From positions 18,840 to 82,839 of the forward strand of contig CANRGE010000001.1 in assembly GCA_947630065.1 (NCBI GenBank): 64,000 nucleotides of DNA, given 5' to 3'. The position numbers and the translations under genes were made by a program. Below the pieces are notes generated by a model. The model saw only the letters and a list, made by a program, of their open reading frames with translations, made no database searches and had not been told where the DNA came from. Shown in pieces: positions 1-64,000 of the stretch (within the stretch, counting starts at the first letter, position 1; every line of letters begins with the position of its first letter). The DNA is from an uncultured Clostridia bacterium (GTDB taxonomy: Bacteria > Bacillota > Clostridia > TANB77 > CAG-508).

Positions 1-110
1 CATATAATCCAGTATGTATTTTTTCCATTTTTGTCATCATTCATATCTCCTTATAGCAAGAAACAAATAATCAATTTTTTATCGCCGTATTCGATGCTTT
101 TGCTTCCATT

Positions 111-647
111 TTAAATAAGCCTTTCGCCATCTGCTGTTAAATAATAATCTCCATTATCATCAATTTCTAAGCAAATTTGTGGAGTAATTATAATTTCCTC
201 ACCATTGCCTTTAATGTGTATACTTTTTATACTATAATTTTCGCCATAGTTGCGAATAACATTATAGTCTGTGCCGAACCTATTGTTAACATTGCTGTAA
301 CGGACGTAATATTTAGACTTACTACTTTTCCAATTTGGAATATAATCTGAACAATACATATCATAAAAACGTTCTGTTTTTAATAAAAACTTAATTTTTT
401 CAAGAACTTCATTTGCACGTTCTTCTGTATGAAAATAATCATTATTTTCAAAACATGAAATGTCATAATCAGTATGTTCTTCACAAGTTTTAGATATATC
501 AAGCTCACCACCTAAAATACGTAGATAATAGTAATATTCTCCAATGGCTTTACGTCTAAAATCAGATTCTTCACTCTGTTTAATTTCTTTTTTTAATTCT
601 TCTAAAGTCTGCTCAATTTGTTTTATTTTCTCTTCTATTTTATTCAT
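111..647 (-). CDS. hypothetical protein, tandem paralog 1 (N-terminal coiled coil)
   Basis: Intact 178-aa ORF with a GGAGA RBS. Shares the block NNxYFHTEERAxExLxKIxFxLKxE...CxDYxPxW with the genes at 794-1288 and 1281-1778. Confidence 0.6.
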   Translation of the reverse strand: MNKIEEKIKQIEQTLEELKKEIKQSEESDFRRKAIGEYYYYLRILGGELDISKTCEEHTDYDISCFENNDYFHTEERANEVLEKIKFLLKTERFYDMYCSDYIPNWKSSKSKYYVRYSNVNNRFGTDYNVIRNYGENYSIKSIHIKGNGEEIIITPQICLEIDDNGDYYLTADGERLI

Positions 648-688
648 AGTATTTCTCCTTTTAGTATTTTATTTTTCTTTACAATATA

Positions 689-717
689 ATTATATCATAA
701 TTTTTTGAAAATTTCAA
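689..717 (-). promoter_or_regulatory. sigma70-type promoter, conserved family copy 1
   Basis: Minus strand: -35 TTGAAA, 17-nt spacer, TGaTATAAT extended -10. About 35 nt upstream of the ATG at 647. Confidence 0.6.
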
Positions 718-793
718 ATATTTTATTCTTACAAATGTATAGTAACTGGTTAAAAAATTCCTACTTTTATTTTTAAAAATTCACAGGCATAAT

Positions 794-1288
794 TTATTCT
801 GCTTGCTATCTTCTAAAATCTTCATTTAATTTATCACAAATAATTTGTGCTGTTTCTCTATTTGGGAAATATACTCTTAAAATACCTCTATTCTTACAAT
901 CCCAATCTATTTTAAATCTTTTCCTTTCACTGTCATAATAGATATAGTATTTCGCCGCCTCTGAATCCCAATTAGGATAATAATTTGGACAATAAGTATC
1001 ATAATATTTTTCTAATTTTAGTAAAAGATTTACTTTATTTGCAACCTCGGCGGCACGTTTAGAATTAGTAAAATAATTATTGTTATCAAAATATGTAGTA
1101 ACATCATTAGTATTTAACCTATAATTATATATCTTGCCAGTATGAGGCTAAGATTTTATTATAAAGAATTGATTTTCAATATTAGGTTGAACTACAAAAT
1201 CTTTATCAAATTCCTTAAAATTTGATTCTGAAATACTTATTTTTTGTTTAGTCTATATAATTCTTTCTTCTAACTCTCTTTTATTCAT
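794..1288 (-). CDS. hypothetical protein, tandem paralog 2 (164 aa, 3 in-frame TAG)
   Basis: Missing from the ORF track because of TAGs. Read-through gives MNKRELEERII(TAG)TKQK...NNNYFTNSKRAAEVANKVNLLLKLEKYYDTYCPNYYPNWDS...NEDFRR(TAG)QAE then TAA at 794. The ATG overlaps the stop of the upstream paralog. Confidence 0.55.
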
Positions 1289-1778
1289 TTGCTATCTCAT
1301 TATTTAATTTATCACAAACTTGTTGAGCAATTGCATAAGATGGAAAATATGTTTTTACATGATGACAAAAAATAGTACTACTATTTACTTTAAATTTTTT
1401 TATTTCAGTGTCATAAGAAATACCATACTTATCTTCATCGTAAGAACTCCAATCTGGTTCATAATCAGGACAAAAGGTATCTTTATAACATTCAAGTTTT
1501 AACATAAAATTGATTTTCTTCAAAATTTCCATAGCTCTTTCTTCTGTATGAAAATAATTATTACTGTTAAAAAAATGTTCATCATAACTATAATTTTCTT
1601 TCCTTCTATCAATATAAAGTCCCGTGTCATCTGCACAAAAACAATAATAAAAATTATCAAGTGGCACATGATTAAAACTTGGTTCTTTAATAGTAGATAA
1701 TTCTTTTTCTAATATTTGTATTTTTTCTTTTAATTCATTTAATTCTTTTGTTATATTATCTATTTTTTGTATACTCAT
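1281..1778 (-). CDS. hypothetical protein, tandem paralog 3
   Basis: ORF 1281-1799. Preferred start is the ATG at 1778 (MSIQKID), preceded by GGAGGA. Same C-terminal motif family. Confidence 0.6.
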   Translation of the reverse strand: MSIQKIDNITKELNELKEKIQILEKELSTIKEPSFNHVPLDNFYYCFCADDTGLYIDRRKENYSYDEHFFNSNNYFHTEERAMEILKKINFMLKLECYKDTFCPDYEPDWSSYDEDKYGISYDTEIKKFKVNSSTIFCHHVKTYFPSYAIAQQVCDKLNNEIANE

Positions 1779-2475
1779 TATTATCCTCCATTTTAGCATT
1801 TTCTATTCTTGTTTTAGCAACCTAAAAATATTTTTCATTTAATTCTATTCCAATAAAATCTCTGTTAGTATTTATACAAGCAATACCTGTTGAACCACTT
1901 CCCATACAATTATCAAGAACAACTTCTCCTTCTTGTGTATAAGTTTTAATTAAATATTCAAGTAGTGGCACAGGTTTCTATGTTAGGTGTAAAGAACCTC
2001 TACATACTTTAGAATATTTTAATAATGTAATAGGTTGTTTATATTCGTAGGTTTTTTCATATTTTTTTCCTATTTCTTGCTGTTTTATAGGATAGACTTC
2101 CGTAGGTTTATTACCACCTTTTTTAATAGGCTTATCTCTTTTTATTAACTAAGGAAAATAAGGCAGACGCCCCTTAGAAAACACACTAATAGTTTCTATC
2201 TAACGCATAGGTTGAATTTTTGCGTTGACCATTCCACTTGGAATAACTTTATCCCAATACCAATCATATTTATAATTTTTTAAATTTGATATTCTAAGTT
2301 TACTACTGAATGGTTCACTACCAAAAAGAACTATTGCAGTATTCTTTTTTACTATTCTATTGTATTCAGTCCATAAAGGTTCAAAAGGTATTACATTATC
2401 CCATTTACAAGAAATCGTGCCATAAGGCAAATCACACAATATCATATCAATAGAATCATCTGGTATCATTTTCAT
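1756..2475 (-). CDS. DNA methyltransferase (N4/N6 family), 4 in-frame TAG
   Basis: Starts MKMIPDDSIDMILCDLPYG (DPPY-like motif). Read-through continues ...SLHLT(TAG)KPVPLLEYLI...VVLDNCMGSGSTGIACINTNRDFIGIELNEKYF(TAG)VAKTRI, ending at TAA 1756. The TAG at 1978-1980 sits where the paralog at 27190-28119 has Q in HPTQKP. Confidence 0.8.
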
Positions 2476-18307: not shown

Positions 18308-20104
18308 TTAAAATCCTTTAAGCTCTATAAAGTTTAAATCACTACAAAGAATTTGTAAGCTACAATTACCATTCCAATAATTTAAGTTTCCTTTGCCAAC
18401 TACAGTGAAAATAAGATTTTTGCCATTAGTTTGTTCTAACTCTTCAATTATATTTTCTGCCTTAAATTTAATATAACTAATATCATTAACTATAAATTTT
18501 AATGTATCTTGATTTTTTCCTATTATTTGATAATCCTGAACCACAATATTTTCTACTACTATAATTGGTTCAGGGTTTCCTTGACCCCATAACTTTTTTC
18601 CATTATCTAAATCTAATATCAAATCTTTTAAATAAGAACAATTTTCATTAACAATAAAATCGGCTTCATAATAGCCTTCATTAAAATTAACATCTTTTAA
18701 TTTTTCGTTGGCATAACTCTAAAGTTTGCTTATGTCTGATTTGCTCATACCGAAACCAGCCGCATTAGCATGACCCTCAACGTAACTCATGTAATTGCTG
18801 TCCTACAAAAATTTTTTAAAGTCCTTTAATTCACTTTCTTCTCTTCCGCGAACCGAACCCTTTAAATATCCGTCTGGACTAATACGTCCAAGCATTGTAG
18901 GTTTTTTATATTTTGATGCAATTTCTCCTGCAATAAGTCCTGTAAGATTATTTGAAACATTTAAGTCATCAGCTTGCAAAATAAGAATCTTATTTTCATC
19001 AAGGCAATTATCGCTAATTTGAATGTCAAGTAATTCAATAGCTTTTTCTTTTTCTCTATTCTGTCTATTACGAGCATTGACACAATTTCTTGTACTTTGT
19101 TCTGTAATGGTTTCCATTGTATTTTCACCGCCGCGCTTTGTTGAAACAATCTGTTTGTCTCCTTCAATAAAGCTACGAAAAAGTATTTCTTTTTCATTTT
19201 GAGTTCCAACTCTAATAAGAGCATTGATAAGCGGCGTTACATAAAAAGCAACTTTAATTTGAGTAATTTCACCATTTGTATAATAATCGTTTGTCCATGA
19301 TTCTGGACGAATACCTAACATAGGATAGCATTGTTTTTTTATAATTTCTCTAAAAAGACTATTGTTTATATTACTTAAACCACAGTCACAAATATATCTA
19401 TTCTCAAAAGTCTACATATTCATCATGTCACCGATTTCTCCCAGTGCCACAAGGTCTAAGTATTCTTTAATCATTGGTTTGTAAGATTTTTCTATCATCA
19501 ACTTCTTTTCAAAATATTCAAGAAACTTATAAACTACACCAACACCACTTAAAAATTTATTAGGATAATTTTTAGAGAGCTAATTGTTTATAACTATAGC
19601 ATTTTCGCTATATTTATCTACTAAGTGATGGTCTAATACTAATAGGTCATAACCCATATCTGAAAGAATTTTATGCTACTCATAGTCATTACTTGAACTA
19701 TCTGGTAATACAATTAAATCATATTTTTTTTCATTTTCTAATTCAGACATTATACAACGTAATCCGTGTTCTTTACCTTGCGGAATATGATATGATAAAG
19801 TAAAATCATATAGTGATGAAAGAATATCTGTTAAATAATTATAAAATAAAGCCGCGCTTGTATAGCCGTCACAGTCTGGGTCAACTATAATTAAAATTGA
19901 ACTATTATTTTTTAGGTGTTTTAATAGTAATTGATAACCTTCTTCTATATTATCCAATAAATTAGCATCATATTCATTTTCTTTAGAAACATGAAAAAAA
20001 TTATAAATATCTTTTTCATCATGGGGTAAAATATTTCTTTCCTATAATAATTCATTTAAAAAATTCTCTTTTATTTCCTTGCTTGTTTTTCTTACATATT
20101 GCAA
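18308..20104 (-). CDS. recJ: RecJ-like DHH/DHHA1 single-strand exonuclease (598 aa, about 6 in-frame TAG)
   Basis: ORFs 19676-19957, 18803-19321 and 18308-18622 plus the gaps share one frame. IIVDPDCDG, LLVLDHH and EGHANAAGFG motifs. TTG start after TAAGGAGG. Confidence 0.8.
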
Positions 20105-20117: not shown

Positions 20118-21188
20118 TTATATCCAAACTGTGTTTTGCCAATATAATTTTAAGAAAGTTTCACCACCTCTATCCATTGGACTTTCTTTTAATTTTAAAA
20201 TATTATTACTATCCCAAATAAAGCCCATTTTCACTTTATTCTAATATTTTTTACAAAAATTCATTAACTTATTATAATATTTATCTTTTTCTTTCCAATT
20301 TGTCCCCTCTTTATCAAAAGCAATTAAAATTCGATTAACTCCTAAATTCAATAAGAGGTTAATCTAATAATCAGATATATTGCTGCCGCAAGCCGCAACG
20401 ACTATATTATCATGAGAACCAAAATAAGACATATATTGTAAACAAGACTTTTCTGATTCAGCTATTATAGCCATTCCTATACGTTTAATATTGCCTGCTA
20501 CAAAATTAAGTCCATATAAATTATAACCTAATGGGTGAGATAATACTTCTCCATTTACAACAATAGGTCTATATTTTCCGTTCAACTCTGCTTCATCTGG
20601 GTCTAATGCTCGTCCCCTAACTCCAATTAAATAGCCCTCTCTATTATAATGGGGAATTATTACTTTATTTTCTATTATTGAATATCCAATTTGATAATGC
20701 CGCATGGCTTCTTCTGTAATACCATCATCTAACCATTCTGCAATTGGATAAGTAATAAAAGTATTAAGAATATTGGGGTTTAAGTGCTTTAAATTAACTA
20801 TTATTTTTTTCTTCTAATATTTATCTAATTCTAAATCATATGGCTGATAAAAAGAACTTTCAAAAGGGGAGCTTGTATAATTTGCTTTTTTTGCTAATCT
20901 AAGTACTATATCTTTATAAAAATCATAATCTTGATTTAATATTTCATAACGTTTCTATAATAATTTAGCTATATTAAAAGTTCCACAGCAAGTATAACAG
21001 ACAAATAATTTACTATTTTTATAATAATAAAGTTTATGTGAACCATCTTCGGCGTAATGATTATGACATATAGTAGGAAAAATTATTTCATTTTTATGTT
21101 CTATATAATTTTCTCCACCAATAGAAGTCATTATTTCCTTAATATCATCTGTTGTTAAATTTTTAACAACTTCATTAACATCAATCAC
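20118..21188 (-). CDS. dnaG: DnaG-type DNA primase (356 aa, 3 in-frame TAG)
   Basis: Zn-finger region FPTICHNH...FVCYTCCG, RNA-polymerase core IIPHYNREGYLIGVRGR...KYRP...LYGL, and Toprim AIIAESEKSCL...IAFDKEG. ORFs 20955-21188 and 20364-20705 are in frame. Confidence 0.8.
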
Positions 21189-22904
21189 TTAAATCATATC
21201 TCCTATATTTAAGTCTTTAACAGTTTTAATTTGGTCTACTTCATTTTCAAAAGCATCTGTTATAAAAGAATTATTTTCAATATTATCTTGTGATTCTAAA
21301 TTATTCTTAATCATTGAGGTAAAATTGTTAAGTACTACATCTACACTATCATTTTTAAGTTTTTCATTATTATAATAATTTTCTAATTCAATCATTTCTT
21401 TAGTTTTTGTGATTTCAAAATCTATAATTCTTAATTCCTCTATTGGTTCATTATTGGGAGTAGTAACAAAAATATCTTCTCTTCTACACGTTCCCAAATC
21501 ATTATAGCCCCAGAGTCTTATCTAAGTCCAACGACCTCTTCTGTTCTTAAAAATATCTATTACAATATTAGGTTTATAACCAAAATTCTAACTAAATTCA
21601 GAAACTAATTTTAATTCTGATTGTGATGGTCTTGACATTATACACGCAAAATCAACTAAGTTTACAATCATTTTTGCGCTTTGAATTTGGTGATAATCTC
21701 TAAATCCACCATCTTCATTATCATTAGATATTTGAGTTGATGTCATAATAAAAGCATTTAATTCTACGGCAAGATTTTTTAAAGTTGTAGTAAAAAGTCT
21801 AAGACATACATATTCTGCTAAATGTAAATCCCTATATTCATTTAACATTGCAGGAGAGCTAAAAATGTAATCATAGAAAAAATATTGCACTCCTTTTTGT
21901 AGATTATAACGTCTAAAAAGATTTTTTATAACAGAAGCACAAGGGTCAGGAACTCTCACTAAATAAAAATTATCATTATATTTTTCCATGATTTGAATAG
22001 CTTTTGCTATTCTATCCGAATCAGCTAAATCAAAAGTACCATAAAGAAAACATTCTTCATTTATACCTGTAAGCCAAGATAAAATCATAGTTTGTATTTC
22101 AGATATATCTTGTTCTGTAGAAACATAACAAATTTTTTCACAATGTCCTGTTGCTACCCATTGATTTTCTATTGTATCATATCTAATTGGATAAGCTAAA
22201 TTACAACAATCTCCAACCATTGTACGTGATTTTCCTACACCACTTGATGCTGAACGTAAATAAAGTTTACCTAATCTTGCCCCTCTTGTAATTGTATTAA
22301 AAATTTCACCTTGAAGTGGTAAACCAATTTCAGGTTTTATTTCTAAGCTATTTAATAATTCTTTAACTCCTTCACCAGCTCTTACCTCCTCTATTTCTTG
22401 ATTAGAGGAATATTTATCTTCTAAAACAGCTACTTCACTCTTTAATCTATTTATTATATCATTAGGTTTAAGTTCATCAAATTTCTGATTTATTTTTGTA
22501 TAATCAGTATCTAAAGGATTCTCGCAATAAAATTGTGATATATCTCTTCCTGATTTTTGTAGCTCTCTTAATAACGCAAATTTTTTAAAGGTATTATAAT
22601 AATAATTAAAATTGCTAATTTCTGCATAAGTTTCACAATCCTATAGCATTTGTATACCTTTTTCATTTTGCATTAACTGCGCCGCCAAAGCGTTATCCTA
22701 TAAATATTGGTCTACATCTATTGTATGAATTTTTTCAGCACCATTGATATATAAATTATAGATAGCTGAAAATATATATCTATCTAATTGCCGTGGAAAA
22801 TCATTAGGTTCAATCTAATATTTATCTATATCATTTAAAATAAGTGGTTTTTGCATTAAAGAACCTAACACCTAAATTATTATTTTACGAGGTGTTTCTA
22901 TCAA
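21189..22904 (-). CDS. dnaB: DnaB-type replicative helicase (571 aa, 6 in-frame TAG)
   Basis: N-terminal ...(TAG)VLGSLMQKPLIL...FPRQLDRYIFSAIYNLY, Walker A LRSASSGVGKSRT, and C-terminal FKNRRGRW. TTG start 7 nt after GGAGGA. ORFs 21588-22220 and 21189-21497 are in frame. Confidence 0.85.
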
Positions 22905-23719: not shown

Positions 23720-24676
23720 TTAAATAAAATCATTAAATTCTTTTTTTATTCTTTTGATTTGTTCCTTAGAGAAATTTGAAAAATCTATATGAGAATTAAA
23801 ATTATCATAATTTAAAGAACGTGATACATCTTGTAGATGATATATAGCATAATTCCCCAATGCCACATTTTTTATTTCACGCTATTCTATATTTATTAAG
23901 CCCCAACTATTTAATAAATTAAGATATAAACGAATATTGGTATAACATATACTATTTGTATCACCATGACCCAAAATAAAACAAATATTCCTTATAGAAA
24001 AATCCTTATCATAAGGTATTGATGTTTTATTTAACTCTTTTAAATATAAGTATGTTCTTAATAAATCTATATTTTGACTATTTACCTTTGCGGGTTTTAG
24101 TAAAATTTCTGTAATTGCTTTATCATAATCTGTTGAAAAATTAGGAGTAATATAATAGTAATCACAATCTATCTTAATTAAATTATTATCACATAATTTA
24201 GCTAACGTATTATAAAAAGTTTGAGTACTTTTAATTCCTAAATTTTTACAAGTTTCTGAAATATTAAAGAAGTTTTTATTTATTCTTAAATTAGTCTATT
24301 CATCTGTTAAAATATTAGCTAAATTTATCATATAATAATATAATAACCACTATTTATTAGTTAATTTAATAGAGGAATTATCAATATTATTTTGACAAAA
24401 ACTTCCCTCGCCTCCAATAGTTCTATTATATCCATTTTTATAGCTATCATAGTAGCTAATCCAAAACTATTCTCTTTCATTTAACTATTGCTATGAACAT
24501 TCTTCTATAACATCAAAAGAAAAGTTATCTATTCTATTTACTTTCATATCCTAATATAAAGGATTATAAAGGTCTTTACATTTTTTATGTTCTCTCCAGC
24601 GTCTTTTAATATCAATAGATTGTCCTATATATACTTTTTTATTAACATTATTAGTAATTTTATAAATTCCTATCAT
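23720..24676 (-). CDS. free-standing GIY-YIG homing endonuclease (318 aa, 7 in-frame TAG)
   Basis: MIGIYKITNNVNKKVYIGQSIDIKRRWREH...NERE(TAG)FWISYYDSYKNGYNRTIGG. AGGTGA RBS. Absent from the ORF track because of TAGs. Confidence 0.75.
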
Positions 24677-24957: not shown

Positions 24958-25102
24958 ACCTTACTTCATGAAGTATTTTTCATATTAGAAAATTTAATTA
25001 TAATAAAACAATAAACACAAGCGTTCCAACAATTTGTTTTATCAATTTAACTTTACTATTTACTTTTAAAGGTAAGCTGAAAGTTATTAAAGCTGACCCA
25101 AG

Positions 25103-25176
25103 TTACGGTGGAAGGATTTGAACCTTCGGAGTGACGGAGTTAGAGTCCGCTGCCTTACCCGCTTGGCTACACCGTA
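25103..25176 (-). tRNA. suppressor tRNA, anticodon CUA (reads UAG), tRNA-Gln-like body
   Basis: TACGGTG TA GCCAAGCGGGTAAGGC A GCGGA CTCTAAC TCCGT CACTCC GAAGGTTCAAATCCTTC CACCGTA A. The anticodon is at 25141-25143. U1-A72, the D arm and the anticodon-stem GGA/TCC core match the tRNA-Gln(UUG) at 30050-30121. Confidence 0.85.
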
Positions 25177-25233: not shown

Positions 25234-25851
25234 TTAAATTAAAATCCAATCTTCATCACTAATATTGTTAATGTCTTTCTTTTTACAAGGTAATCCTTCA
25301 TATTTACACCAATGTATAATTGTGTTATCACTAACACCATACATTTTACCTATTTTAACAAATGATGTAGTTCTAATTAAATTTTTTAATTCTTCTCTTG
25401 ACGGTCTATCAACTATTCTTCTACATTTTGCTACACAAGTGTTACATAATCCAGTTTTAGTTTTTTCATAAAGTTGCTTTCCACATTCAGAACAAAAATG
25501 TAAAGTTTTTTCTCTTAAAAGTTTTTTCTTCTCTCTTAATATGTTTGCATAATTCTCATCATATACTTTTTTCTATTCTAAATATTCTACAATATATAAT
25601 CCCGCATGAATTTCTCTATGACAATTAGCACAAACCAAAATACATTTTTTTAATTCTTCTAAATCTTTTTCTAAATCATGTGTGTTTCCTGTTGAAAGAC
25701 CATATTTTTTCTCTTCTGATATAATATGATGAAATTCTAATGCTGAATTAACCTTATTATATCCACATAAGCAACATCTCCCACCTGCGACTTTTACTAA
25801 ATTATCTTTACGCTTTCTTCTATAATTAGAAACATCTGTAGAACAACTCAT
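25234..25851 (-). CDS. free-standing HNH endonuclease with C-terminal HTH (205 aa, 1 in-frame TAG)
   Basis: CCLCGYNKVNSALEFHHI...KCILVCANCHREIH. The TAG at 25573 is followed in frame by ...HFCSECGKQLYEKTKTGLCNTC...IGKMYGVSDNTIIHWCK, ending at TAA 25234. Confidence 0.75.
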
Positions 25852-25871
25852 TATTCCTCCTTATAAATAAT

Positions 25872-25900
25872 ATTATATCATAATTTCTATAAAAAGTCAA
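25872..25900 (-). promoter_or_regulatory. sigma70-type promoter, family copy 8 (HNH gene and downstream tRNAs)
   Basis: Minus strand: TTGACT, 17 nt, TGaTATAAT. Confidence 0.6.
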
Positions 25901-25904
25901 ATAT

Positions 25905-26141
25905 TCAAGATTCCTCTAATGAAGATGGAATTACTCGTATTTGTGTTCGTGCTGTTACACTACATTCTTTTATATCAACTACCTTTACACGAGTGCCATA
26001 ACAAATATAATTATAATTATTATCCACCATTCTAATGATAGAACCTTTTTCTGGAATTTTCTCCTCTTCATTTAATTCATAATCATAAGTTTTGCCACGA
26101 AAAATCTTATTCTTATCTTTGAATTGAACAGTAATAAACAT
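25905..26141 (-). CDS. hypothetical protein
   Basis: Intact 78-aa ORF, AAGGAAG RBS, TGA stop. Confidence 0.5.
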   Translation of the reverse strand: MFITVQFKDKNKIFRGKTYDYELNEEEKIPEKGSIIRMVDNNYNYICYGTRVKVVDIKECSVTARTQIRVIPSSLEES

Positions 26142-26175
26142 AGATAACTTCCTTTCTGTTTTCTTTTATAATAAT

Positions 26176-26204
26176 ATTATATCATACTTTTTCCAAAAAG
26201 TCAA
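26176..26204 (-). promoter_or_regulatory. sigma70-type promoter, family copy 9
   Basis: Minus strand: TTGACT, 17 nt, TGaTATAAT. Confidence 0.6.
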
Positions 26205-26208
26205 ATAT

Positions 26209-26502
26209 TTATTTTTTTATTATTTGTGAAGAAAAAACCTCTTTTGTAATTTTTTTATCAAAATAATTCTTAATAAGTTGTAAGTTTTCTTCAATAAAAT
26301 CATTAACTTTCATAACAGCATCTATATCAACTTCACCCTTAGAACTGACTATTTTTATGGATTTATTGTAAAAAATATGAAATTCTTCACCGCTACTTCC
26401 ATATAAATAAAAATTTATATTATGACTACCTAAAACATTCGGCTCATCAAAAACTAAATCATACTTAAATCCTGTTGTTCTTTTAGAAAGGAAAACTCCC
26501 AT
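26209..26502 (-). CDS. hypothetical protein
   Basis: Intact 97-aa ORF with AGGTGAG RBS. Confidence 0.5.
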   Translation of the reverse strand: MGVFLSKRTTGFKYDLVFDEPNVLGSHNINFYLYGSSGEEFHIFYNKSIKIVSSKGEVDIDAVMKVNDFIEENLQLIKNYFDKKITKEVFSSQIIKK

Positions 26503-26507
26503 TTAAC

Positions 26508-27163: not shown

Positions 27164-27189
27164 ACTATTTCTCCTTAACAAAATATTAT

Positions 27190-28119: not shown

Positions 28120-28156
28120 TCTATATCACCTATTCATTTTAATAAGTATTTTGTAG

Positions 28157-28229
28157 TGCGCTTAGTGAGAATCGAACTCATACTCTCTAGATTAAGAATC
28201 TATTGCTCTACCTATTAAGCTATGGGTGC
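28157..28229 (-). ncRNA. tRNA-Lys(CUU)-like gene with three C-A mismatches in the acceptor stem
   Basis: Good D arm GCTTAATAGGTAGAGC, anticodon arm TAGA-TTCTTAA-TCTA, T arm ATGAGTTCGATTCTCAC. The acceptor is 5' GCACCCA against 3' TAAGCGC, with 3 of 7 positions as A-C or C-A. Confidence 0.45.
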
Positions 28230-28262
28230 ATTAAATTTGATTTTCTCTTTTTTACTATAATT

Positions 28263-28291
28263 ATTATAACATATTTTCAAGAGAAAATCAA
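28263..28291 (-). promoter_or_regulatory. sigma70-type promoter, family copy 10
   Basis: Minus strand: TTGATT, 17 nt, TATAAT. Confidence 0.55.
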
Positions 28292-28312
28292 ATTTTCAGT
28301 TTTTTTATTTTA

Positions 28313-29871: not shown

Positions 29872-29909
29872 CTATTTCTCCTTTCATATCTCTCATCTTT
29901 ACTATAATT

Positions 29910-29938: not shown

Positions 29939-29966
29939 ATATTTTAATAAAAATTTTTCTTTTGAC

Positions 29967-30047: not shown

Positions 30048-30049
30048 AA

Positions 30050-36968: not shown

Positions 36969-38387
36969 TTATTCTATGTAAATGTCGCCATCTATTCTTG
37001 CACAGACCCAGCCACTTGGAATTTGTAGCCAATATTCTTTATCAGAAATCTTTTTAACTTCTAATGCAGTAACTTTAGTTCCTGTTTTTAATACCGCTTT
37101 AGTTTGGTTATAAGAATTTTTCTTGCCATCAGCTGTTAATTGACTTCTATCTTTCCAAGTATAAGAAGTTCCTGCTCCTGTTCTAACCTTTAAATCAACT
37201 AATAATTTATAAACTTTGCCTTTAGTATAAGGAGATTTCGTATTAGTTTCTTTTTTAGTTGTAGTATTATTTTTCGCTGTAAAGTCTTTATAAAAATAGC
37301 TCATGTCAACGCCGCTTGAAATTCCTTTAACCTTATAAACTGACGTAAATTGCCAACCATCATAATTACTAATATTTGGTTTTGTCTGAGCTGTGCCATT
37401 ATTAGTTCCATATTTTGCAACCCAAATACTATAATTTTTAATATCAGCATATGTGATTTTTGTATCAAACCATGATTCACTTGTATAAACGCCTGCTTTT
37501 AAACCTTTCTTCTCTATATATTTACAAAAAGCAACTGCGACTTTTGTTCTATCACTTTTAGAAATTTTATCAGCTCTTCCATTACCACTACCTTCGGTAC
37601 TTTCTTCTACATCAATATAAATTGGTAAAGAGGGCTTATAAGATTTTATTAAGTTATAAGCATATTTTGCTTCTTCTTCTCCCTCTGTAGCATTTTTAGC
37701 CTACGAAAGAAAATAAAATCCATAAGGAATTTTATTATCTACTAAACCTTTAATATGAGAATCAAACTTGTTATCTTTACATAAAGTTCCTGCCGTTCCC
37801 CAACCTCTATAACCAATTCTTATAATAGCTCCATCAATTTCTTTAGCTACTGCGGCGTAATCTACAGTGGTTTGCCATTCACTTATGTCAAGAATTTTAT
37901 AAGGACTTGATGAATTTTTGTTTGTTGATTTCTCTTTAGTTGATATTTTAATTCTACTTTGGTCTTTAGGTCTTAAAACACCTAAAACATGATTATAATT
38001 GTGTTTAATTTTTGTAGCTGGGTCATGATTCCCAGTCCAATTACAATCCCAAGAATTAAACCAAGTTGTGTCTCCTTCGCCTGAACAAATGGCTATATGA
38101 CCCCAACCGCCTTTAGATAAGGAACTTGACCATACCATTATATCTCCTTTCTACGGCACAAAATCAGGTGTATTGGCAATTCTTGTAAAGTTTTCTTTTA
38201 GCTAAGGAACATTATTAAAATTGTCGTAATAGTCATGAGCATCACCCCAAGCTCCAGGTTGTAAGCCAAACACTTCATTTAGATAATATTTTGCTAAATC
38301 AACACATTGACAACCTGCAACACCATCATAATCTAAAGCTTTTCCTTTGTGAGCTTCTATAAATTGTTTATAAGTATATTTTGCCAT
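36969..38387 (-). CDS. endolysin: CHAP + GH25 muramidase + SH3 (472 aa, 3 in-frame TAG)
   Basis: CHAP motifs GVAGCQCVDLAKYY and GGWGHIAI. GH25 motifs ILDISEWQ, GAIIRIGYRG and YGFYFLS. C-terminal SH3-like VRTGAGTSY...WLQIPSGWV. ORFs 38202-38387, 37701-38138 and 36969-37304 are in frame. Confidence 0.8.
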
Positions 38388-40384: not shown

Positions 40385-40627
40385 TTACTACTACAATATT
40401 TTTAGAATTTCATCAATCTTTTCTTCTATTCTATCAATCTTTTCATCTTGATTTATTAAATGATTTTCAATTCTATCAGAAATAATATCTGCCGCTTTCT
40501 AAGAATTTTGTAGTATTTCATCTTTATCACTCTAAGTTAAATTTTCCTAATAGTTTAATAAACCTAAAATAAAAGATGCAACATTTATATTATAACTTAA
40601 TCGCTCCTATAATTCATTCAACTACAT
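40385..40627 (-). CDS. coiled-coil protein (80 aa, 8 in-frame TAG, including codon 2 and the last two codons)
   Basis: M(TAG)LNEL(TAG)ERLSYN...DRIEEKIDEILKIL(TAG)(TAG) then TAA. Family promoter upstream. Confidence 0.4.
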
Positions 40628-40715: not shown

Positions 40716-41918
40716 TCAATTACCAGACAACTCATCTAAATAATCAGCTATTTGTGCTGTTTTAGACCTCTCTACTTTTGTAAGTCTAACTGTGGCAAAA
40801 TTTTCAGCATAAGGAGAATTAGCTAACTATAAAATACTCCTTAGACCATTTCTATTCTTAAATATATCTGAATCTATTTGCTATAAACTTCCATCAAAGA
40901 ATATTCTTGAATTTTTTCCAACTCTACCTATTAAAAGTTTAACATGATTTTCGTCCAAATTCTATGCTTCATTAACTAAAATAATTGAATTATCAAAATT
41001 TCTTCCTCTCATATAAGCAATAGGCACAATTTCTAAACGCCCATCTTGCATTAGTCGTACAACTTCATCAATTCCAATTAAATCAACTAAAGTTCCAATC
41101 ATTGGTGTAATTTTTTCAAAACTTGTACCAGGCAAGAACCCTAATTCCATAGAATTTTTTACATAGTTATTATTAGGTATATAAACAATTTTATTTATTT
41201 CATCATTATATAACGATTCTAAAGCTAAATTATTAACTAAAAAAGATTTTCCCACTCCTTGTGCGCCGCCAGCGTAAAGAATTGTTACATTAGGATTATG
41301 AAGGGCATCAAATAAGCATCTTTGTTCTGGATTTTTGGGTGTAATTTTTGTAATCCATTTATTTCTAATAGAACCAAATCCAACTTCTTCTAATTTTCCT
41401 TTTCTGTAAACATAAATTTTAATAACTTCACCATCTGGGTCTTTAACAATTAAATATTGATTCTCAACCATTGAAAACTAAGGCGGCAAAACATTGTTTT
41501 CTAATAATTCTTGTAAGCTATTAGAATACATATCTAAAACGTCCCAATAAAGAACACCTGTATAAACTTCATCATTACCATATCCAGAAGTTCTTATATT
41601 ATTAGCAGTAGCCTTAACTTTCAAGTAAACATCATTTGTTATAAGTTCACCCGCATAGCTTTTAGTTAATTCAATTAACTTATCATCAACTTTCTTATTT
41701 TCATTATCAAGAGAAAGATTAAAAATTATATTAGTTAAATTTCTTGATATAGCTATTGCCGCTCTCCGCGCCTTAAAAGCAATTTCTGGATTTTGATTAA
41801 GTTTTAAGCCATCTAATTCTTTAAGAACATCTCCCGCTATAATAAGGTCAGGTTCTTTAGACAGAATTTGTGGATAATCTAATAAAATACAAGAATCAAC
41901 TATTTTGAATTTACTCAT
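40716..41918 (-). CDS. phoH: PIN-domain + PhoH-like ATPase (400 aa, 4 in-frame TAG)
   Basis: ORFs 41478-41918 (PIN-like) and 40962-41471 (GGAQGVGKSF Walker A, GFLPG, AYMRGRNF) are in frame across a TAG. ILVNEA(TAG)NL matches the canonical DEAQN. Continues GSL(TAG)QIDS to TGA 40716. Confidence 0.8.
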
Positions 41919-41963: not shown

Positions 41964-42938
41964 TTAAAGTAATTCCTTTATCTCGCCGAGAACTCGGTTA
42001 ATGGCTTCAACCTCATTTTTAGGAATTTCTGAAAATTTAATCTTTTTACCAAATTCCTTTTCCAAAATTGCTTGTGCCTTTTCTATTTGTCCTTTTTCAT
42101 ATATTTTATTCCAAACTATAGCGGCGTCTTCCATTAAATCTTCATAATTTAATTGATAATATGGATTAGACTCATTTGTTCCTTCACCGCCGCCCTTATG
42201 TTTAATCTCTTCATCAATAGCATTGTAAATTGCATTGATAAGATTATCATAAGATAATTCAACTCTTGGCTCTATATATGCAAATCGAGAACCAGCTTGG
42301 AAACGACTATCTCCCCTAAAATATAAATAACGTTTCTGAACAGTTCCTTCTCCTTCTTGTATTTCTACTTGTCTTAAATAAGCTATTATATCAACAAGTT
42401 TATTGATTATGCCCAAAGGTCGTTCAGGCAATGCTGGAGCTATTTGTACATATTCTTGTCCTTTATCATTAACAAGTGTTTTTTCTTTTGCATGAGAAAT
42501 AAAGAATAGTCCATAGCCAGAAAAAGCCAATTCTCTAAAGGTAGAAGAAAATTCATCATCTAATAATTTATAGCCGCCACCAAAAGGTATATCTTTTATA
42601 GCTTCAATTCCATTTTGTTCACAAACGAATTTTTCACAAAGCTTATAAGCTTCATCTACTGTATCAATTGTGATAATACGAATTTTGCTATCTAACTTAT
42701 CTTTATTCTAAACTAATTGGCGTACTACTTTTTTCCAATCCTGCCATTTAACTATAGGCTGTACTAATACATTATGTAAAGCATTTGTACCCTGCTCAAA
42801 ACTACAGATTAAACCCTTATCTATCTAACTTGCAAGTGTAGTTTTCCCCGTTTTTACATTTCCATATACAAGACAAAATTTTCCTTTTAAATCTTTACTA
42901 ATCTTTTGTGGTTCAAGAGTAAGTAAATCTATAGCCAT
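41964..42938 (-). CDS. Sak4-like / AAA_24 RecA-fold ATPase (324 aa, 2 in-frame TAG)
   Basis: MAIDLLTLEPQKISKDLKGKFCLVYGNVKTGKTTLAS(TAG)IDKG... (Walker A) joins track ORF 41964-42530. GGAGGA RBS. Confidence 0.65.
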
Positions 42939-58190: not shown

Positions 58191-59258
58191 TTATTGAACT
58201 GTAACAGTTCCCTCTGTTCCAGTAAAAGACGGTTGTGTGATAGTTCCTTTAGGAGTGTAAGTGATACTAACAGTTGCATCATCACCAGTAAATACAGGCT
58301 TACTAATATCACCTTCGGGAGTATAATCAACACTAATAGTTGAAGGAGTTCCTGTAAAAGTTGGAGTTGCAATAGTCCCTGTAGGAGTATAGGAAGCTGT
58401 TAATGTTGAAGCACTTCCTGCAAATGTAGCAGTTAAATCAGTAGGAGTTCCAGTAAAAGAGGGTGTGGTAGTAGTTGCTGATTTAATTCCAGTTACAACA
58501 GTTACTGCACTTCCCTAAGTCGGCAATGCACCAGTAGTCCATTTAAGCTCCAAAGTTTCATCAGCCACAGTTGTTTCAAGACTGGGTAATGTACCGACTG
58601 ATGTAATCGGCGTTATAGTGTCAGTATTGGGAGTAACTGTAGTTGTTAATGCACCAATAGTACCAGCGGGAGTGTAATTACCTGAACTACTTACAGGAGA
58701 TGTTGCTTTTATGGTTACATTTCCAGACGGAGTGTAACTATTTGTAGTTATTGTATCTGCGCCGCCAGTGAATGTTAAACTACCTATAGTGCCTTGTGGC
58801 GTAAAGGCAGTTGAAAGTGTTTTCTTAGTGCCAGTAAATGTCAAATCGCCAACAGTACCTGTAATAGAAACATTGGAATCAGTCAAAGTTTCCTGCGTAC
58901 CACTAAAAGTAATAGCTGAAATACTACCTTGTGGTGTGAATTTGCCTGTTGCACTATCCTTAAAGGCTAAAGCCTTTAATGACCCCATGTCACCAAATTC
59001 TTTCCATTGAGTGCCATTCCAAGCAAACTCTTTATCATTATATATTACTACATCACCAGAATTTGGCGTTACGCTATCAGTGTCTATTTGAATAGGAGAA
59101 GTAGTAGATTTATCCGTTATTTGAGTAGTTGTTTCTCCTATGTAGTGCATTGCACCAGTTAATCCAGTTTTTAAGTCACTTATTTCTTGTCTTGCCTATG
59201 TGTCTTTAATGTTATATGTATTACCGCTTGGTAATTTTATTTTAGAAATATCAGGCAT
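58191..59258 (-). CDS. tail fibre protein 1 with periodic YTPxGxI...FTG repeats (355 aa, 2 in-frame TAG)
   Basis: N-terminus MPDISKIKLPSGNTYNIKDT(TAG)ARQEISDL. At least 8 repeats of about 25-30 aa of the form (F/Y)TPxG(T/S)I..(L/P)(T/S)F(T/S)G. ORF 58515-59150 continues past TAG 58515 to TAA 58191. Confidence 0.65.
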
Positions 59259-59273
59259 TATTTTTCACCTCAA

Positions 59274-60698
59274 TTAGTAAATAGAAAAAAGTATTTCAAT
59301 TATGTTGTCTGTTATACGTTTTACAACTCTATAGCCTTTTTCAGAAGATGTCGCTATGCCGTTTTCGCCACAAGTACAATATTCATTTACTTTGCAAGTT
59401 CCATCATCTCTTACTCTTATATAGCCAAGCATACCAATTGCAGCCCATTCAGGACGTTCAGCACGAGAAATATATTTTTGGTTTTCATCGTAATCAGGAT
59501 TTATTGTTAAAGGTTTACCATCTTCTTCATTACCATAGATAAATCTACCAAAATCATCTCTTATATATGTTTTAGACCAACATTCATCTGCATTACCTAC
59601 AATACTTGGAGTACCAGAAACAATTCCTGCAATAAAATCACCAGGCTATGCAATGTTGATTTTATCACCATTTAAGGTTACAAATAATCCTACTCTATCT
59701 TCATTAAATAAGTTGCCATCTTCCCATTCTTTATATTCTGCATAATCTGCGCCAGAGGTATGAAAAGACTAAAGTCCATAAGCAGTTCCATCATAGTTTA
59801 CTCTAAAAGCATTAGCCTAACTACTTGCTGTGCCATTACCTATTACAAAAGCTGTTCCAGAAGTTCCATTAACAGAACCATAATTTGATGTTCTGTTATA
59901 ATGTCCAAAGGCAATCCCCCCAGTAAAACCACGAGCATTACTACCTATAGCAACGGCTTCAGAACCCTATTTAGTTATTGTACAATTGTTACCTAAACAT
60001 AAACCATACATAGAATCTACAGTATTGTTAAAACCAATACCTACACAAGTATTTGCATTTTCCTAAAATGTATTAGTAAATCCTATTGCAACACAAGTAT
60101 CAGATGTATCAAATTGATTATTATTTCCAATTGCAGAAATAGTTCCAGACCCACTTATAGTATTTAAATCACCCATTATATAACAATTTGATGACCAATC
60201 TTGTATATAATTTTGGTTGCCAGCAATAAAACATTTTTCTGATGAATCAATATTACTATTATATCCACATATTATTGTAGAATAATCACTATCTACCCCT
60301 ATCGTATTAGTTTCACCAGCTACAAAATTTAAACTACTGCTACAAGTATTATCAAAACCAATTGCAAAGTTATTTTCTCCACCATATATTATGTTAGAAG
60401 AACCAAATAAAGTATGATAATTTCCAGCTACATTTTGTTGATTATCCCCTGCTATAAAACAACAAGTGCTTTGACTGGTTCCAAGTGATAAATTATTGAT
60501 TTTAAAATTCCCTAAACTTTCTGGGTCATTATAACTAACTACTTCTAAATTATCTCTTGCTTCTTCTGCTGTAGTCGCACCTGTGCCACCTTGCGTAATT
60601 GGTACAGGCACGGATATTAAATTACTACTTCTCGCAACACTATCCTTTATATTATAAACCTAACCATCAGGTAATTTAATTTTAGATATATCTGCCAT
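59274..60698 (-). CDS. tail fibre/appendage protein 2 with beta-helix repeats and peptidase-G2-like C-terminal domain (474 aa, 6 in-frame TAG)
   Basis: N-terminus MADISKIKLPDG(TAG)VYNIKD. Repeats of N.aiG..n. C-terminal NAFRVNYDGTAYGL(TAG)SFHTSGADYAEYKEWEDGN...RPEWAAIGMLGYIRV resembles the autoproteolytic intramolecular-chaperone domain of phage tail spikes. Confidence 0.65.
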
Positions 60699-60709
60699 TA
60701 TTCATCACA

Positions 60710-61138
60710 TCACTTATTAGTAAATATTAACAATTCACTGTCAACAGACGATTCATCAATAGTTACTTTTTCATTCCATTTATTTTTATCCTAAATTGTA
60801 ACATGAATATCTTGATTCTCTATATGTTGAGAATAAAGTGTGTCTATAAAAGGTAAATCAGCTAAATATGAATTGCCATCACCTATTTTTATTCCTGCTA
60901 CATCTTTACTTAAATCCTGTTTATAGTTACTATAAATATAAATAGTACCTTTTTTAGGAATTAAAATAGACTAACTTGCCCAATTTTCTTTTGTATCACA
61001 AAAAATTTCTGCATTTGCAGCATTAACATCAACAGTTAATTTATTGATTTTTTTCATAATTACACTGTTTTCATCATTTAATTTATTCCAAAGGAGCTAT
61101 AATCCCTCCTCATCTAAATATTTTTTATTTTTAATCAT
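60710..61138 (-). CDS. tail-associated protein (142 aa, 3 in-frame TAG)
   Basis: MIKNKKYLDEEGL(TAG)LLWNKL... This N-terminal YLDxxGLxxLW motif recurs in the gene at 61131-62594. Confidence 0.5.
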
Positions 61139-62594
61139 TGTTACTCATTCCTTTTTTCAGATAATAAATAGTTAAGTTGCTTATGGTAGTGTCTTTTAAT
61201 TCGCTGCCGTCAATCTTTAACGGTTTAATAACAACACTATCACCGTCATACCAATGTTCAAATTTTAGACAAGAGCTTTCATATTTATCACTCTATATAT
61301 CAACTATAATAGAGTCTTTCAAAGTAAAACTATAAGTACCTTGATTATCAATTGCGGCACTTGTAAAACTACTTATCTATATTCCTTTAGTTTTCTAAAA
61401 GAAATCTTCAAAATTATTATTAGTTAAAACCACATCAGTTTCTACATCTTTCCATGTGCCATCGCCTTGTGCGGAAGTCCAATCTTCTTTTTTAATCACG
61501 GAATTTCCTTGCTTTAGAACCGTAATATTAAAAGTTCCACTATTAGCTTTCCTATAAGCTACTAAGCAAAATTCTGTATCTGTAGTATAATAACCAAATT
61601 TTGTTCCATTTGCAGATGGTGTTACTAATTCAACAACTTTCATTTGTCCAACACCATTATGTAATCCTGCTTGAACTAACCAAACGCCGCCAATCATGTA
61701 CTAATATCTTGCTATATCGGTAATAATTAAACTAACAGAATTTTCAGGTTTACTTTCTTCTAACTTTAGAGGTATTTTACAGAAAGTAGTATATCTATCG
61801 GCATTATGAGAACCAAATTCATAGTTAAAGCTATTATCTAATCTTATATTTTGAGAACCATCAAAATTAGTATTGTTAATAGTGACTATTCTATCAAGCT
61901 AATGCGCCGTGGCGCAACTATTTTTAATACTTTCAATAGTAGAATCAGTAATATCATCTGAAACTATATTGCTATCTGTTTCTTTACTTAACATATCATA
62001 TAAGTTCCAACTACTTTCTTTATCATTATAATTATTGTGTTCTTCTAAAACCTAAAACATATAATTGTCTGTCTTAGAACATTTAACAGCTAAAAGAATT
62101 TCACTCTCGCCACAAATAAGTTTGAAATCTTGTGGGTCTATGTCACCACTTAATAAATTCCACTTTAGATTTTTATTAGAAATATTCCCATCGTTAATTT
62201 CTATAAAAGCAGTTAAAATTCCTATACTATCACTATTGTTACTTTTTCTAACAATAAAACTAATACTTGTGTCACCATTATTAAGATAAGTGTCGGCGAA
62301 AATTCTCCAACCTTTTTCTTCATTATTACTATTGCCCTCTATTAAACACTTTCTATAAGGCATTGCACCAACATCTTCATAAGTTGGCATTTGATGAATG
62401 TGGTCGGCTCTACTAAACTTGTTACTGATACCAGGCTCAGGTTCGTCCTCAAAATTCTTAGGTAAATCATCAGATGGTTCAGTTACAAAAACTTTAATAG
62501 CATCAATCTTATTTATAATTTTACTATTCTATTCATCTAATTTATCCCATATTTGTTTTAAGCCTTTTTCATTCAAGTAATACTTTTTTGCCAT
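61131..62594 (-). CDS. tail fibre protein 3 (487 aa, 7 in-frame TAG)
   Basis: MAKKYYLNEKGLKQIWDKLDE(TAG)N...GISNKFSRADHIHQMP. ORFs 62052-62390 and 61395-61697 are in frame. TAA at 61131 overlaps the next ATG. Confidence 0.6.
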
Positions 62595-62595
62595 T

Positions 62596-62880
62596 TTAAC
62601 CACTCATTGTAAAAGTTAAAGAATTTATAAAATCTGCACTTATTGGCTCAAAATCGTTAATAGAGGTTTCAATATCTTGAATTTTTGTAGTATTATCACC
62701 TATTGACTAATCCTAAGTTTTATTAGTTTGGTCTAATTGCTAATATTTTTGTTTCAAATCGGCAATGTCTTTATCAGAAGCTGCACCGCCAGACGTGTCA
62801 GCAGCGATACTTCTATCTTTGAAATAGGCGGGGTCAATAGTATCATCTCTTACTTTCTATTCCTATAGATATATATTCAC
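62596..62880 (-). CDS. coiled-coil protein with DDTIDPAYF motif (94 aa, 5 in-frame TAG); paralog of 34140-34550
   Basis: GTG start after GAGGTGA. NIYL(TAG)E(TAG)KVRDDTIDPAYFKDRSIAADTSGG... Confidence 0.5.
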
Positions 62881-62994
62881 GCATTATCACCTCATTTTAC
62901 TTATTTAATTTTGTTTTAACTATTAGAAAAAACAAAATTTTAATTCTATTATAAAGTAACAACCTTTATTTTTATCTCTAAACAATATAAAATA

Positions 62995-63023
62995 TTGATT
63001 TTTACTATTTTTTATGATATAAT
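62995..63023 (+). promoter_or_regulatory. sigma70-type promoter (plus strand) for the polymerase gene
   Basis: TTGATT, 17 nt, TGaTATAAT. Confidence 0.6.
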
Positions 63024-63055
63024 ATATATAAGAAAAAATAATAGAGGTGATTTGT

Positions 63056-64000
63056 TTGAATGAATTTTATGGTTCTTGTCACAATCATACTGACCGTAGT
63101 AATCATGATTTAAGAGATTCAACTAATAGATTAGATGAATTATGTTGGTATGCCGCAGATACTTTGAAACATAATTTTATTGCAATAACAGACCACGAAA
63201 CAATTATGACGGCGATAGATTGTCAAGAAGTAGAAGAAAAAATTAGACAAACTTATCCTGATTTTAAGGTTATTAGAGGAAATGAAATTTATCTTTGCAG
63301 AAATGGACTTAATGCAGAAAACTATGTAAGAGGAAAAGACAAATTTTATCATTTTGTACTCTTAGCAAAAAACATAGAAGGACATAGACAAATAAGAGAA
63401 TTATCAACAAGAGCATGGCTTAGAAGTTTTAAGCAAGGCAAAATGAGAAGAATACCAACTTATTATTCTGATTTACAAGAAGTTATTGGTAATAATTCTG
63501 GTAATGTAATTTTTAGTACAGCGTGTCTTGGTTCAAGATTAGCTAATCTTGCTATTAATTATAACTCTAATCCAACAGATGATAAATTACAATATATTAT
63601 TACATGGATTACAGAAATGCAGCAAATTTGCGGCAAAGAGAATTTCTTTCTTGAAGTTCAACCATCTTTTACAGAAGAGCAAAAAATAATTTATAAAGTC
63701 TATAAAGAGCTTTCAGAAAAATTAAACATTCCTGTAGTAATTTCACTTGATGCTCATTATTTAAGAAAAGAAGATAAAGAAATTCATCATGCTTTCTTAA
63801 CAGCACAAGAGGGTGAAAGAGAAACAGAAGCTTTCTATTCTTCAACTTATATGATGAATAGAGAAGAAATTCATTCTTATATGGACGAAGTTATAGGAAC
63901 AGAAACGGTTTCATTATGGCTTAATAACACAAAAAACATTTATGATATGTGTAATGATTATGATTTAACAAAACCTACAAAGATTGGTTATATTCCTTTA
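63056..64000 (+). CDS. dnaE: DNA polymerase III alpha subunit-like (DnaE-type), N-terminal PHP domain; runs off the window
   Basis: TTG start after AGAGGTGA. LNEFYGSCHNHTDRSNHDLRDS...FIAITDHETI...IRGNEIYL...HFVLLAKN...FFLEVQP...ISLDAHY are typical PHP-domain motifs. Open to the window end with no TAG in 315 codons. Confidence 0.75.
   Translation, partial: MNEFYGSCHNHTDRSNHDLRDSTNRLDELCWYAADTLKHNFIAITDHETIMTAIDCQEVEEKIRQTYPDFKVIRGNEIYLCRNGLNAENYVRGKDKFYHFVLLAKNIEGHRQIRELSTRAWLRSFKQGKMRRIPTYYSDLQEVIGNNSGNVIFSTACLGSRLANLAINYNSNPTDDKLQYIITWITEMQQICGKENFFLEVQPSFTEEQKIIYKVYKELSEKLNIPVVISLDAHYLRKEDKEIHHAFLTAQEGERETEAFYSSTYMMNREEIHSYMDEVIGTETVSLWLNNTKNIYDMCNDYDLTKPTKIGYIPL

Follow-up and report, generated by a model that had tools for sequence, protein, structure and literature searches.

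TAG as a sense codon, most likely for glutamine, in a partially recoded uncultured tailed phage with its own suppressor tRNA

Introduction

In Escherichia coli, the amber-suppressor tRNA-Gln supE (glnV44) carries the anticodon CUA and inserts glutamine at UAG in competition with release factor 1 (RF1); supE is a chromosomal mutant, its suppression is partial, and the genome around it still uses TAG as a stop. In crAss-like phages, metaproteomics has confirmed that TAG is translated as glutamine (Peters et al. 2022, PMC9523058). Phages that read TAG as glutamine (genetic code 15) were further described in eight clades, which encode suppressor tRNAs, are recoded in part and often switch code, with in-frame stops in 26%-71% of genes and average sizes of 154-210 kb in the larger clades; the published reading of partial recoding is that early genes are translatable in the host code while later genes depend on the suppressor (Borges et al., bioRxiv 10.1101/2021.08.26.457843). 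Phassvirus phAss-1 (OQ749652) is an uncultured gut phage of ~136 kb with TAG in 28% of its open reading frames (ORFs), suppressor tRNA-CUA genes judged to be of the glutamine type, and no dedicated synthetase found (Babkin et al. 2023, PMC10607447); NCBI taxonomy files it in a "Caudoviricetes code 15 clade". Here we analyze the use of TAG in a stretch of 64,000 nucleotides deposited as DNA of an uncultured Clostridia bacterium (contig CANRGE010000001.1, positions 18,840 to 82,839), hereafter the window. A preliminary description had proposed that TAG is a sense codon in this window, most likely for glutamine, and had added that such recoding is already known from gut phages, as the studies cited here bear out. 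We put at roughly 0.93 the probability that the window belongs to an uncultured tailed phage, known from a contig of 153 kb or more, that uses code 15, encodes its own tRNA with anticodon CUA (tRNA(CUA)), is recoded only in part, and would express its TAG-containing genes with a suppressor-dependent delay. The phage probably infects Firmicutes.

Results

TAG is translated throughout the window

The window has a GC content of 28%, and nearly all of its genes lie on the minus strand (111-51290 and 58191-62883), with a plus-strand block at 51673-57833. We measured coding density by greedy ORF tiling under alternative stop sets, and found the gain to be specific to TAG: coverage was 0.60 with the stops of table 11 (median ORF 102 aa), 0.86 with TAG as sense as in table 15 (median ORF 175 aa), and 0.63 with TGA as sense as in table 4. 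Recoding of TGA was rejected on its density gain of just 0.03 over table 11, and a coverage of 0.79 with TAA as sense was spurious, consisting of mixed-strand ORFs that arise because the sequence is AT-rich. A gene-model-free test, i.e., a count of stop codons with at least 40 open same-frame codons on either side, returned 37 TAG, 16 TAA and 13 TGA, compared with 3.4 TAG in triplet shuffles; TAG is also the rarest stop triplet of the window (2,045 vs 5,382 TAA). A first crude gene model held 135 in-frame TAGs. The refined model comprises 71 genes over 86.7% of the window (18,503 codons) and holds 148 in-frame TAGs, spread across 38 of the genes, with the other 33 TAG-free; the preliminary description had counted 140-150 by hand. 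Its view that recoding is the key to reading the window also stands, since coverage is 0.60 without and 0.87 with TAG as sense.

Homology carries across the TAGs as well. In five minus-strand genes, single Pfam or PHROG matches extend over in-frame TAGs. One PF01555 (N6_N4_Mtase) match covers residues 9-221 of an N6/N4 DNA methyltransferase (1756..2475; profile 1-220/221), across all four of its TAGs. For the PIN-PhoH ATPase (40716..41918, four in-frame TAGs), PF02562 covers residues 191-389 (profile 1-198/205) across three TAGs. In an AAA_24 protein (41964..42938), called Sak4-like after the GenBank annotation of its homologs, PF13479 spans residues 21-219 (profile 4-195/195) and both TAGs; in a GIY-YIG homing-endonuclease-like gene (23720..24676), where 7 TAG stand beside 7 CAA and 0 CAG, PF01541 spans residues 2-84 and four TAGs; and in the DNA primase (20118..21131), phrog_47 (E = 2.7e-40) matches residues 21-335 across all four. 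Alignments to related phages likewise continue across window TAGs. The other genes named in the preliminary description also contain in-frame TAGs, and several of them were identified by Pfam or PDB matches: a RecJ-like exonuclease (18308..20104, minus strand, six in-frame TAGs; Pfam DHH, DHHA1 and RecJ_OB, PDB RecJ), a DnaB-like helicase (21189..22856, minus strand, five TAGs; PF03796, DnaB_C), an endolysin with CHAP and GH25 domains (36969..38387, minus strand, three TAGs; Pfam and PDB), a tail-fibre-like module, and two giant paralogous genes.

These results can be set against the possibility that TAG is a true stop here, in which case the fragments would represent pseudogenes, errors of sequencing, or a decaying element whose genes are occasionally read through in a programmed manner. 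Genes do look broken under table 11, and a few TAGs lie within five codons of an ORF end. However, the genes are interrupted by TAG alone, without TAA, TGA or frameshifts; conserved domains go on past the TAGs; and the TAGs are evenly spread along genes (chi-square P = 0.41), with no significant overall enrichment at the N-terminus, where Gln codons show the same slight excess. Related phages behave alike, with TAG and Gln codons replacing each other at conserved columns, and a matching suppressor tRNA is encoded. Nor are the TAGs sequencing or assembly errors, since at least five independent assemblies contain the same genome at 99.8-100% identity. We therefore regard a true stop as next to impossible: TAG is translated in this phage, and TAA and TGA terminate. 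In two further assemblies of this phage, the sole difference from the window is a single indel, of 18 nt or 36 nt, somewhere within 34.8-57.2 kb, a span that takes in the region 51251-51672.

The claim that true gene ends are TAA or TGA agrees with the refined model, in which 58 ORFs end in TAA and 13 in TGA, a result that holds by construction as ORFs were defined that way; some TAGs near gene ends may terminate early in infection. TAGs lie 1-5 codons from the ORF end in genes g10, g21, g55 (which ends TAG-TAG-TAA), g02 and g20. A dual meaning, in which a few of the 148 TAGs would terminate early genes under the host code, leaving short read-through tails, and would be read as glutamine later, would fit a TAG-poor gene at 4543-6225 whose sole TAG stands four codons before TAA, a gene at 13897-14688 that ends TAG-TGA, and the triple ending of g55 (40385-40627). 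Across the model, though, six TAGs occur in the last five codons vs ~2.8 by chance, a weak signal at about twice the expectation, and we hold such a dual meaning to be unlikely.

Fragmentation of nrdD has another cause

The preliminary description also held that dozens of recognizable genes are fragmented by TAG only. This does not hold for nrdD (anaerobic ribonucleotide reductase; 7519-12973, minus strand), which is split into at least five pieces (10628-12973, 9201-9485, 8625-8849, 8188-8373 and 7519-7926), and not by TAG. The first piece, 10628-12973, combines an ATP-cone, the N-terminal NRDD part and an intein with a LAGLIDADG domain. Three gaps contain sub-threshold Rfam matches to group I introns, at 8389-8634 (E = 1.3e-6), 7942-8221 (E = 0.0016) and 8957-9219 (E = 0.25), and the fourth holds a LAGLIDADG endonuclease gene (9729-10547) with two TAGs. 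From these matches, nrdD appears to be split by group I introns and an intein.

Among relatives of the phage (see below), further genes are interrupted by inserted ORFs or gaps (loci L006, L007, L008 and L009): gyrB is split around a 213-aa ORF and PhoH around a LAGLIDADG ORF, another LAGLIDADG ORF follows DnaB, and one relative carries an OrfB_IS605/Cas12f-like TnpB gene. The gyrase-encoding clade to which these phages belong seems to be rich in introns and homing elements.

Relatives of the phage

A close relative was found neither by megablast of 10 kb against GenBank phages, which gave no match, nor otherwise among ~50,000 GenBank phage records. GyrA is at most 34% identical to GenBank phage homologs, and AAA_24 at most 36.5% identical to its nearest cultured homologs, which come from Enterococcus and SPbeta-like phages, i.e., phages of Firmicutes. 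We collected relatives through the TAG-free gyrA-like protein of the window: an IMG/VR scan with this single protein returned none, and an alignment-based scan was needed, which yielded 80 loci. The code state of the loci was set by coding-density gain (40 standard-code and 20 TAG-recoded), and it switches at least eight times on a 63-tip gyrA neighbour-joining tree of the clade. All relatives' loci were translated within the analysis, and no residue was imputed at TAG; a public protein collection already holds the proteins of this phage with Q at TAG.

Glutamine fits the TAG positions

We then considered which residue the standard-code relatives carry at the positions where the window has TAG. 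Opposite 42 window TAG sites, weighted equally, glutamine made up 15.5% of residues in the 40 standard-code relatives, a 5.5-fold enrichment over its 2.8% background across all sites. This share is not what other codon classes produce: glutamine reached 4.3% opposite genuine Lys sites, 5.5% opposite Glu sites, and less still opposite the remaining non-Gln classes, and for none of the 19 non-Gln classes did any of 3,000 draws of 42 sites attain 15.5% (P < 1/3000 for every class). The reverse comparison agrees, as the commonest window codon opposite the TAGs of recoded relatives is CAA.

Well-conserved columns point the same way. The RecJ column at TAG 19580-19582 holds Q in 17 of 17 standard-code relatives, and in the other relatives Q in 19 and TAG in 5. 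Q also occupies the primase column at TAG 20364-20366 in 20 of 22 standard-code relatives, the DnaB column at TAG 22641-22643 in 17 of 24, and the PhoH DEAQ-box column at TAG 40962-40964 in 14 of 17. In recoded and intermediate relatives, only Gln codons or TAG occur at the RecJ and primase columns; I and N are found in addition at DnaB, and Glu at PhoH, where it is present in standard-code relatives too. Paralogs and a canonical motif had been the basis of the first proposal of glutamine, and each of its three sites was recovered at the exact coordinates. The methyltransferase TAG at 1978-1980 (HLT-TAG-KPV) lies in the HPTQKP motif, where PDB chains align Q and where the window paralog with HPTQKP has CAG (27442-27444). 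At the Walker B DEAQ box of PhoH (NEA-TAG-NL, 40962-40964), PDB 3b85 aligns Q. In the alignment of the giant paralogs, CAA at 52504-52506 (NEIF-Q-LWEN) faces TAG at 55806-55808 (NEIT-TAG-LWEN), and at a second site GQL-TAG-YT faces KHI-Q-KT. PDB alignments of RecJ and the endolysin placed their TAGs at variable positions and did not discriminate between residues.

Read-through with a residue other than glutamine, i.e., Lys, Glu, Tyr, Leu, Ser or Trp, as in classical suppressors, or pyrrolysine, could draw on the fact that relatives carry Lys opposite TAG as often as they carry Gln (0.17 vs 0.155), and on a few TAG columns dominated by K, E, R or Y. Yet Lys makes up 44% of residues opposite true Lys sites and just 17% opposite TAG, wherever a TAG column has 17 or more standard-code homologs and a majority residue above 80%, that residue is Gln, and the one column led by Glu has only 7 homologs. 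Together with the tRNA described next, this makes another residue very improbable. On the sequence comparisons, glutamine is the sole assignment that fits TAG.

The window encodes a glutamine-type suppressor tRNA

As had been noted from the sequence, a tRNA with anticodon CUA is encoded in the window. It lies at 25102..25176 on the minus strand, was detected by ARAGORN and by the Rfam tRNA model (62 bits), and folds on the latter into a full cloverleaf with no non-canonical pairs. Its closest relative within the window is the ordinary tRNA-Gln(UUG) at 30049..30122 (minus strand), to which it is 74% identical; identity to E. coli tRNA-Gln(CUG), a sequence that we checked against annotated genomes, is 73%, and identity to the other eight window tRNAs is at most 61% (Glu 55%, Lys 51%). 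The two window tRNAs have in common the U1-A72 pair, the D arm GCCAAG.GGTAAGGCA, the anticodon stem GGACT/ACTCC and the T arm GGTTCAAATCC, and both carry G10. Among annotated blastn hits of tRNA(CUA) in GenBank phages, 9 of 13 are tRNA-Gln. With its short variable region, tRNA(CUA) cannot belong to the Leu, Ser or bacterial Tyr tRNA types.

ARAGORN names this tRNA "Pyl", which would speak for pyrrolysine. That label follows from the anticodon alone, and we rejected a pyrrolysine tRNA in view of the normal cloverleaf, the Gln-like body and the Gln-enriched TAG sites; domain searches of the window proteins showed no Pyl-related domains or pyl genes. By its sequence, tRNA(CUA) is a canonical Gln-type tRNA, and we infer that it is charged with glutamine by a host enzyme, because it is analogous to the supE suppressor and resembles tRNA-Gln. 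The relatives' loci around gyrA carry almost no tRNAs.

ARAGORN missed a tRNA-like element at 32249-32314 (minus strand), to which the Rfam tRNA model gives 50 bits. CCA is encoded and the acceptor, D and T arms are normal, but with just 3 nt (UAU) in its anticodon loop the element cannot decode a codon; it is perhaps a pseudogene, or serves another function.

Recoding is partial and uneven across genes

Of the Gln-type codons in the window, 24% are TAG, with strong heterogeneity between genes (P < 5e-5). At one end stand the gyrase subunits: the GyrA-like gene (44798-47197, minus strand; P = 0.006 for low TAG share) and the gyrB-like gene (47201-49045, minus strand; P = 0.005), both identified by Pfam, contain 0 TAG and 39 CAA/CAG in 1,413 codons and are readable in the standard code. 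DNA ligase, RNA ligase, ThyX, nrdG, most nrdD exons and two methyltransferases are TAG-free as well, nrdD and nrdG having a single TAG between them, at codon 10 of nrdD. A TAG-poor block at 25234..34083 (minus strand), with the suppressor tRNA directly downstream, includes two methyltransferases, RNA ligase, a DUF932 protein and 8 of the 10 ARAGORN tRNA genes; it holds 4 TAGs in ~2,200 codons vs ~17.6 expected from the window average (Poisson P ~1e-4). TAGs occur in the homing endonucleases, DnaB, primase, RecJ, PhoH, the endolysin, the giant genes and the tail-fibre module.

The same subset stands out in the recoded relatives, with 1 TAG vs 311 Gln codons in gyrA (n=20), 2 vs 219 in gyrB (n=17) and 0 vs 64 in ligase, compared with 42 vs 170 in PhoH and 34 vs 151 in RecJ; nrdG and the C-terminal exon of nrdD are also TAG-free or nearly so. 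Recoding is thus partial, and a subset of genes is kept free or nearly free of TAG, a pattern conserved in recoded relatives.

At the other end are small genes loaded with TAG. A minus-strand ORF of 80 aa (40385..40627, g55 above) has TAG at codon 2 and at 7 of its 9 Gln-type codons (binomial P 0.0009), and has no Pfam or PHROG match. A membrane protein of 91 aa (16458-16733, minus strand) has TAG at 6 of 8 Gln-type codons and no Pfam match. Each of the two contains a hydrophobic segment, the former lies 2 kb upstream of the endolysin, and both resemble the strongly recoded lysis-associated membrane proteins of Borges et al. The genes at 38953-40323 and 13897-14688 are also TAG-rich, with 8 TAGs each.

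Other features of the window

A multi-pass membrane protein (36588-36938, minus strand) directly downstream of the endolysin is the probable holin, judging from its hydrophobic segments and position. The giant paralogs occupy the plus-strand block, the first at 51673-55086 (1,137 aa, 11 TAGs) and the second at 55098-57833 (911 aa, 8 TAGs). The TAG-rich tail-fibre-like module consists of five minus-strand ORFs (58191..62880) with 2, 6, 3, 7 and 5 TAGs, and a Peptidase_G2 domain was found in its ORF at 59274-60698. Two small minus-strand paralogs, at 34140-34550 and 62596-62880, lack an ATG and have apparent GTG starts, with TAG five or six codons in and totals of 6 and 5 TAGs, respectively; they have a common motif, D-T-(L/I)-D-P-A-Y-F, followed by a coiled-coil-like tail, and one of them sits directly upstream of the tail-fibre module.

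The code used for gene calling leaves visible traces in public data. Two contigs of the same phage (L090 and L091), which cover window positions 1-10647 plus 10 kb to the left, differ in their public gene calls by the code used: on the contig called with the standard code, the methyltransferase has 91 aa and a LAGLIDADG gene lies in three pieces, and on the contig called with TAG as sense the two have 239 aa and 272 aa.

Discussion

The distribution of TAG can be read as a glutamine codon combined with a built-in delay on the genes that contain it. After infection, host machinery would translate the TAG-free genes at once, i.e., the gyrase subunits, the ligases, the genes around the tRNA cluster, and nrdD/nrdG apart from one nrdD TAG. 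The suppressor tRNA would be transcribed and then charged with glutamine by the host, either by glutaminyl-tRNA synthetase (GlnRS) or by glutamyl-tRNA synthetase (GluRS) followed by the GatCAB amidotransferase, and the charged tRNA would compete with RF1 at UAG. Only then could full-length products of the 38 TAG-containing genes be expected, among them DnaB, primase, RecJ, PhoH, the homing endonucleases, the endolysin region, the giant genes and the tail fibres. The early and late timing is inferred from codon content.

Several observations weigh against this account. The replication genes DnaB and primase carry TAGs, and the split is thus not simply one of replication vs structure. The window and the adjoining 10 kb on its left showed no gene for a release factor, an aminoacyl-tRNA synthetase or an RF1 antagonist. 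tRNA(CUA) has U1-A72 and G10 in agreement with the E. coli GlnRS identity set, but differs from that set at A2-U71, C3-G70 and A73. Gln conservation is lower at TAG than at CAA/CAG sites (0.155 vs 0.279, P = 0.005), i.e., TAG codons sit preferentially at variable positions. Finally, Q was the maximum-likelihood residue of the 20 (7.5 nats over K, and chosen in 98% of bootstraps), but in a control the same likelihood classifier also assigned Q to Lys and Glu sites of weak conservation, a bias that those favouring another residue could invoke. We thus take the likelihood result as support only, and the argument is carried by the Gln-fraction test and the conserved columns, in both of which glutamine stands out, with a 5.5-fold enrichment in the first.

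A broader reading is possible, and we offer it tentatively: the code change in the gyrase-encoding phage clade (contigs of ~90-220 kb) may be more than codon drift and amount to a conserved programme of two-tier expression. Under such a programme, a fixed set (gyrA, gyrB, DNA ligase, nrdG and the C-terminal exon of nrdD) would stay free or almost free of TAG in relatives that were recoded independently, small membrane proteins would be loaded to 75-78% TAG among their Gln codons, and replication helpers, virion genes and lysis would be released once the single suppressor tRNA, acting as the timer, had accumulated. With its many recoded and non-recoded relatives and its conserved TAG-free set, the clade could serve to test the published late-expression timing idea, and, with code state switched at least eight times among 63 sampled relatives, it would be a natural system for the gain and loss of a genetic code change.

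For annotation, the consequences are immediate. If table 15 is not used, the window loses about a quarter of its coding sequence or has it broken, and all further interpretation depends on the right code; the diverging gene calls of the two public contigs show the practical cost of a wrong choice. Recoding is therefore essential for annotating the window, and unsurprising to a specialist: a Firmicutes-type phage lineage is added to the code-15 list, while knowledge of the phenomenon itself is unchanged.

Compared with E. coli supE, the window tRNA has the same tRNA-Gln body with CUA (73% identity to E. coli tRNA-Gln(CUG)), but it is phage-encoded, and the phage genome is adapted to it with 148 sense TAGs. 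With the crAss-like phages, the window phage shares TAG-to-glutamine recoding, a phage-encoded tRNA(CUA), partial recoding and a host presumed to use the standard code. It differs in belonging to another lineage, with Firmicutes phages as nearest cultured homologs and an endolysin of the Gram-positive type, and in that glutamine at TAG is backed by peptides in crAss-like phages and assigned by sequence comparison here. phAss-1 is likewise uncultured, with TAG recoding and a Gln-type suppressor tRNA-CUA. We rejected it as a relative, as the first 50 of its 136 kb gave one weak homing-endonuclease-like hit to the window; it also differs in GC content (40% over the first 50 kb vs 28%), and its tRNAs are not among the blastn hits of the window suppressor.

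The clades of Borges et al. offer the most detailed comparison. No RF2 or synthetase "code change module", as found there, was seen in the 74 kb of the window phage inspected, and the window lacks a terminase gene, although placement in a named clade such as Agate, Jade or Sapphire goes by the large-terminase phylogeny (at least 95% bootstrap). The similarities include low GC, a suppressor tRNA and in-frame stops in 54% of genes; recoded structural and lysis genes, with replication genes variably so; a recoded homing endonuclease inside an otherwise nearly TAG-free gene; a patchy code state among close relatives; and a size that fits the larger clades. The window phage thus matches the published model of phage code 15, as known from crAss-like phages, Lak phages, the clades of Borges et al. 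and Phassvirus. As TAG-to-glutamine recoding in phages is already established, what is new here is the lineage and not the mechanism.

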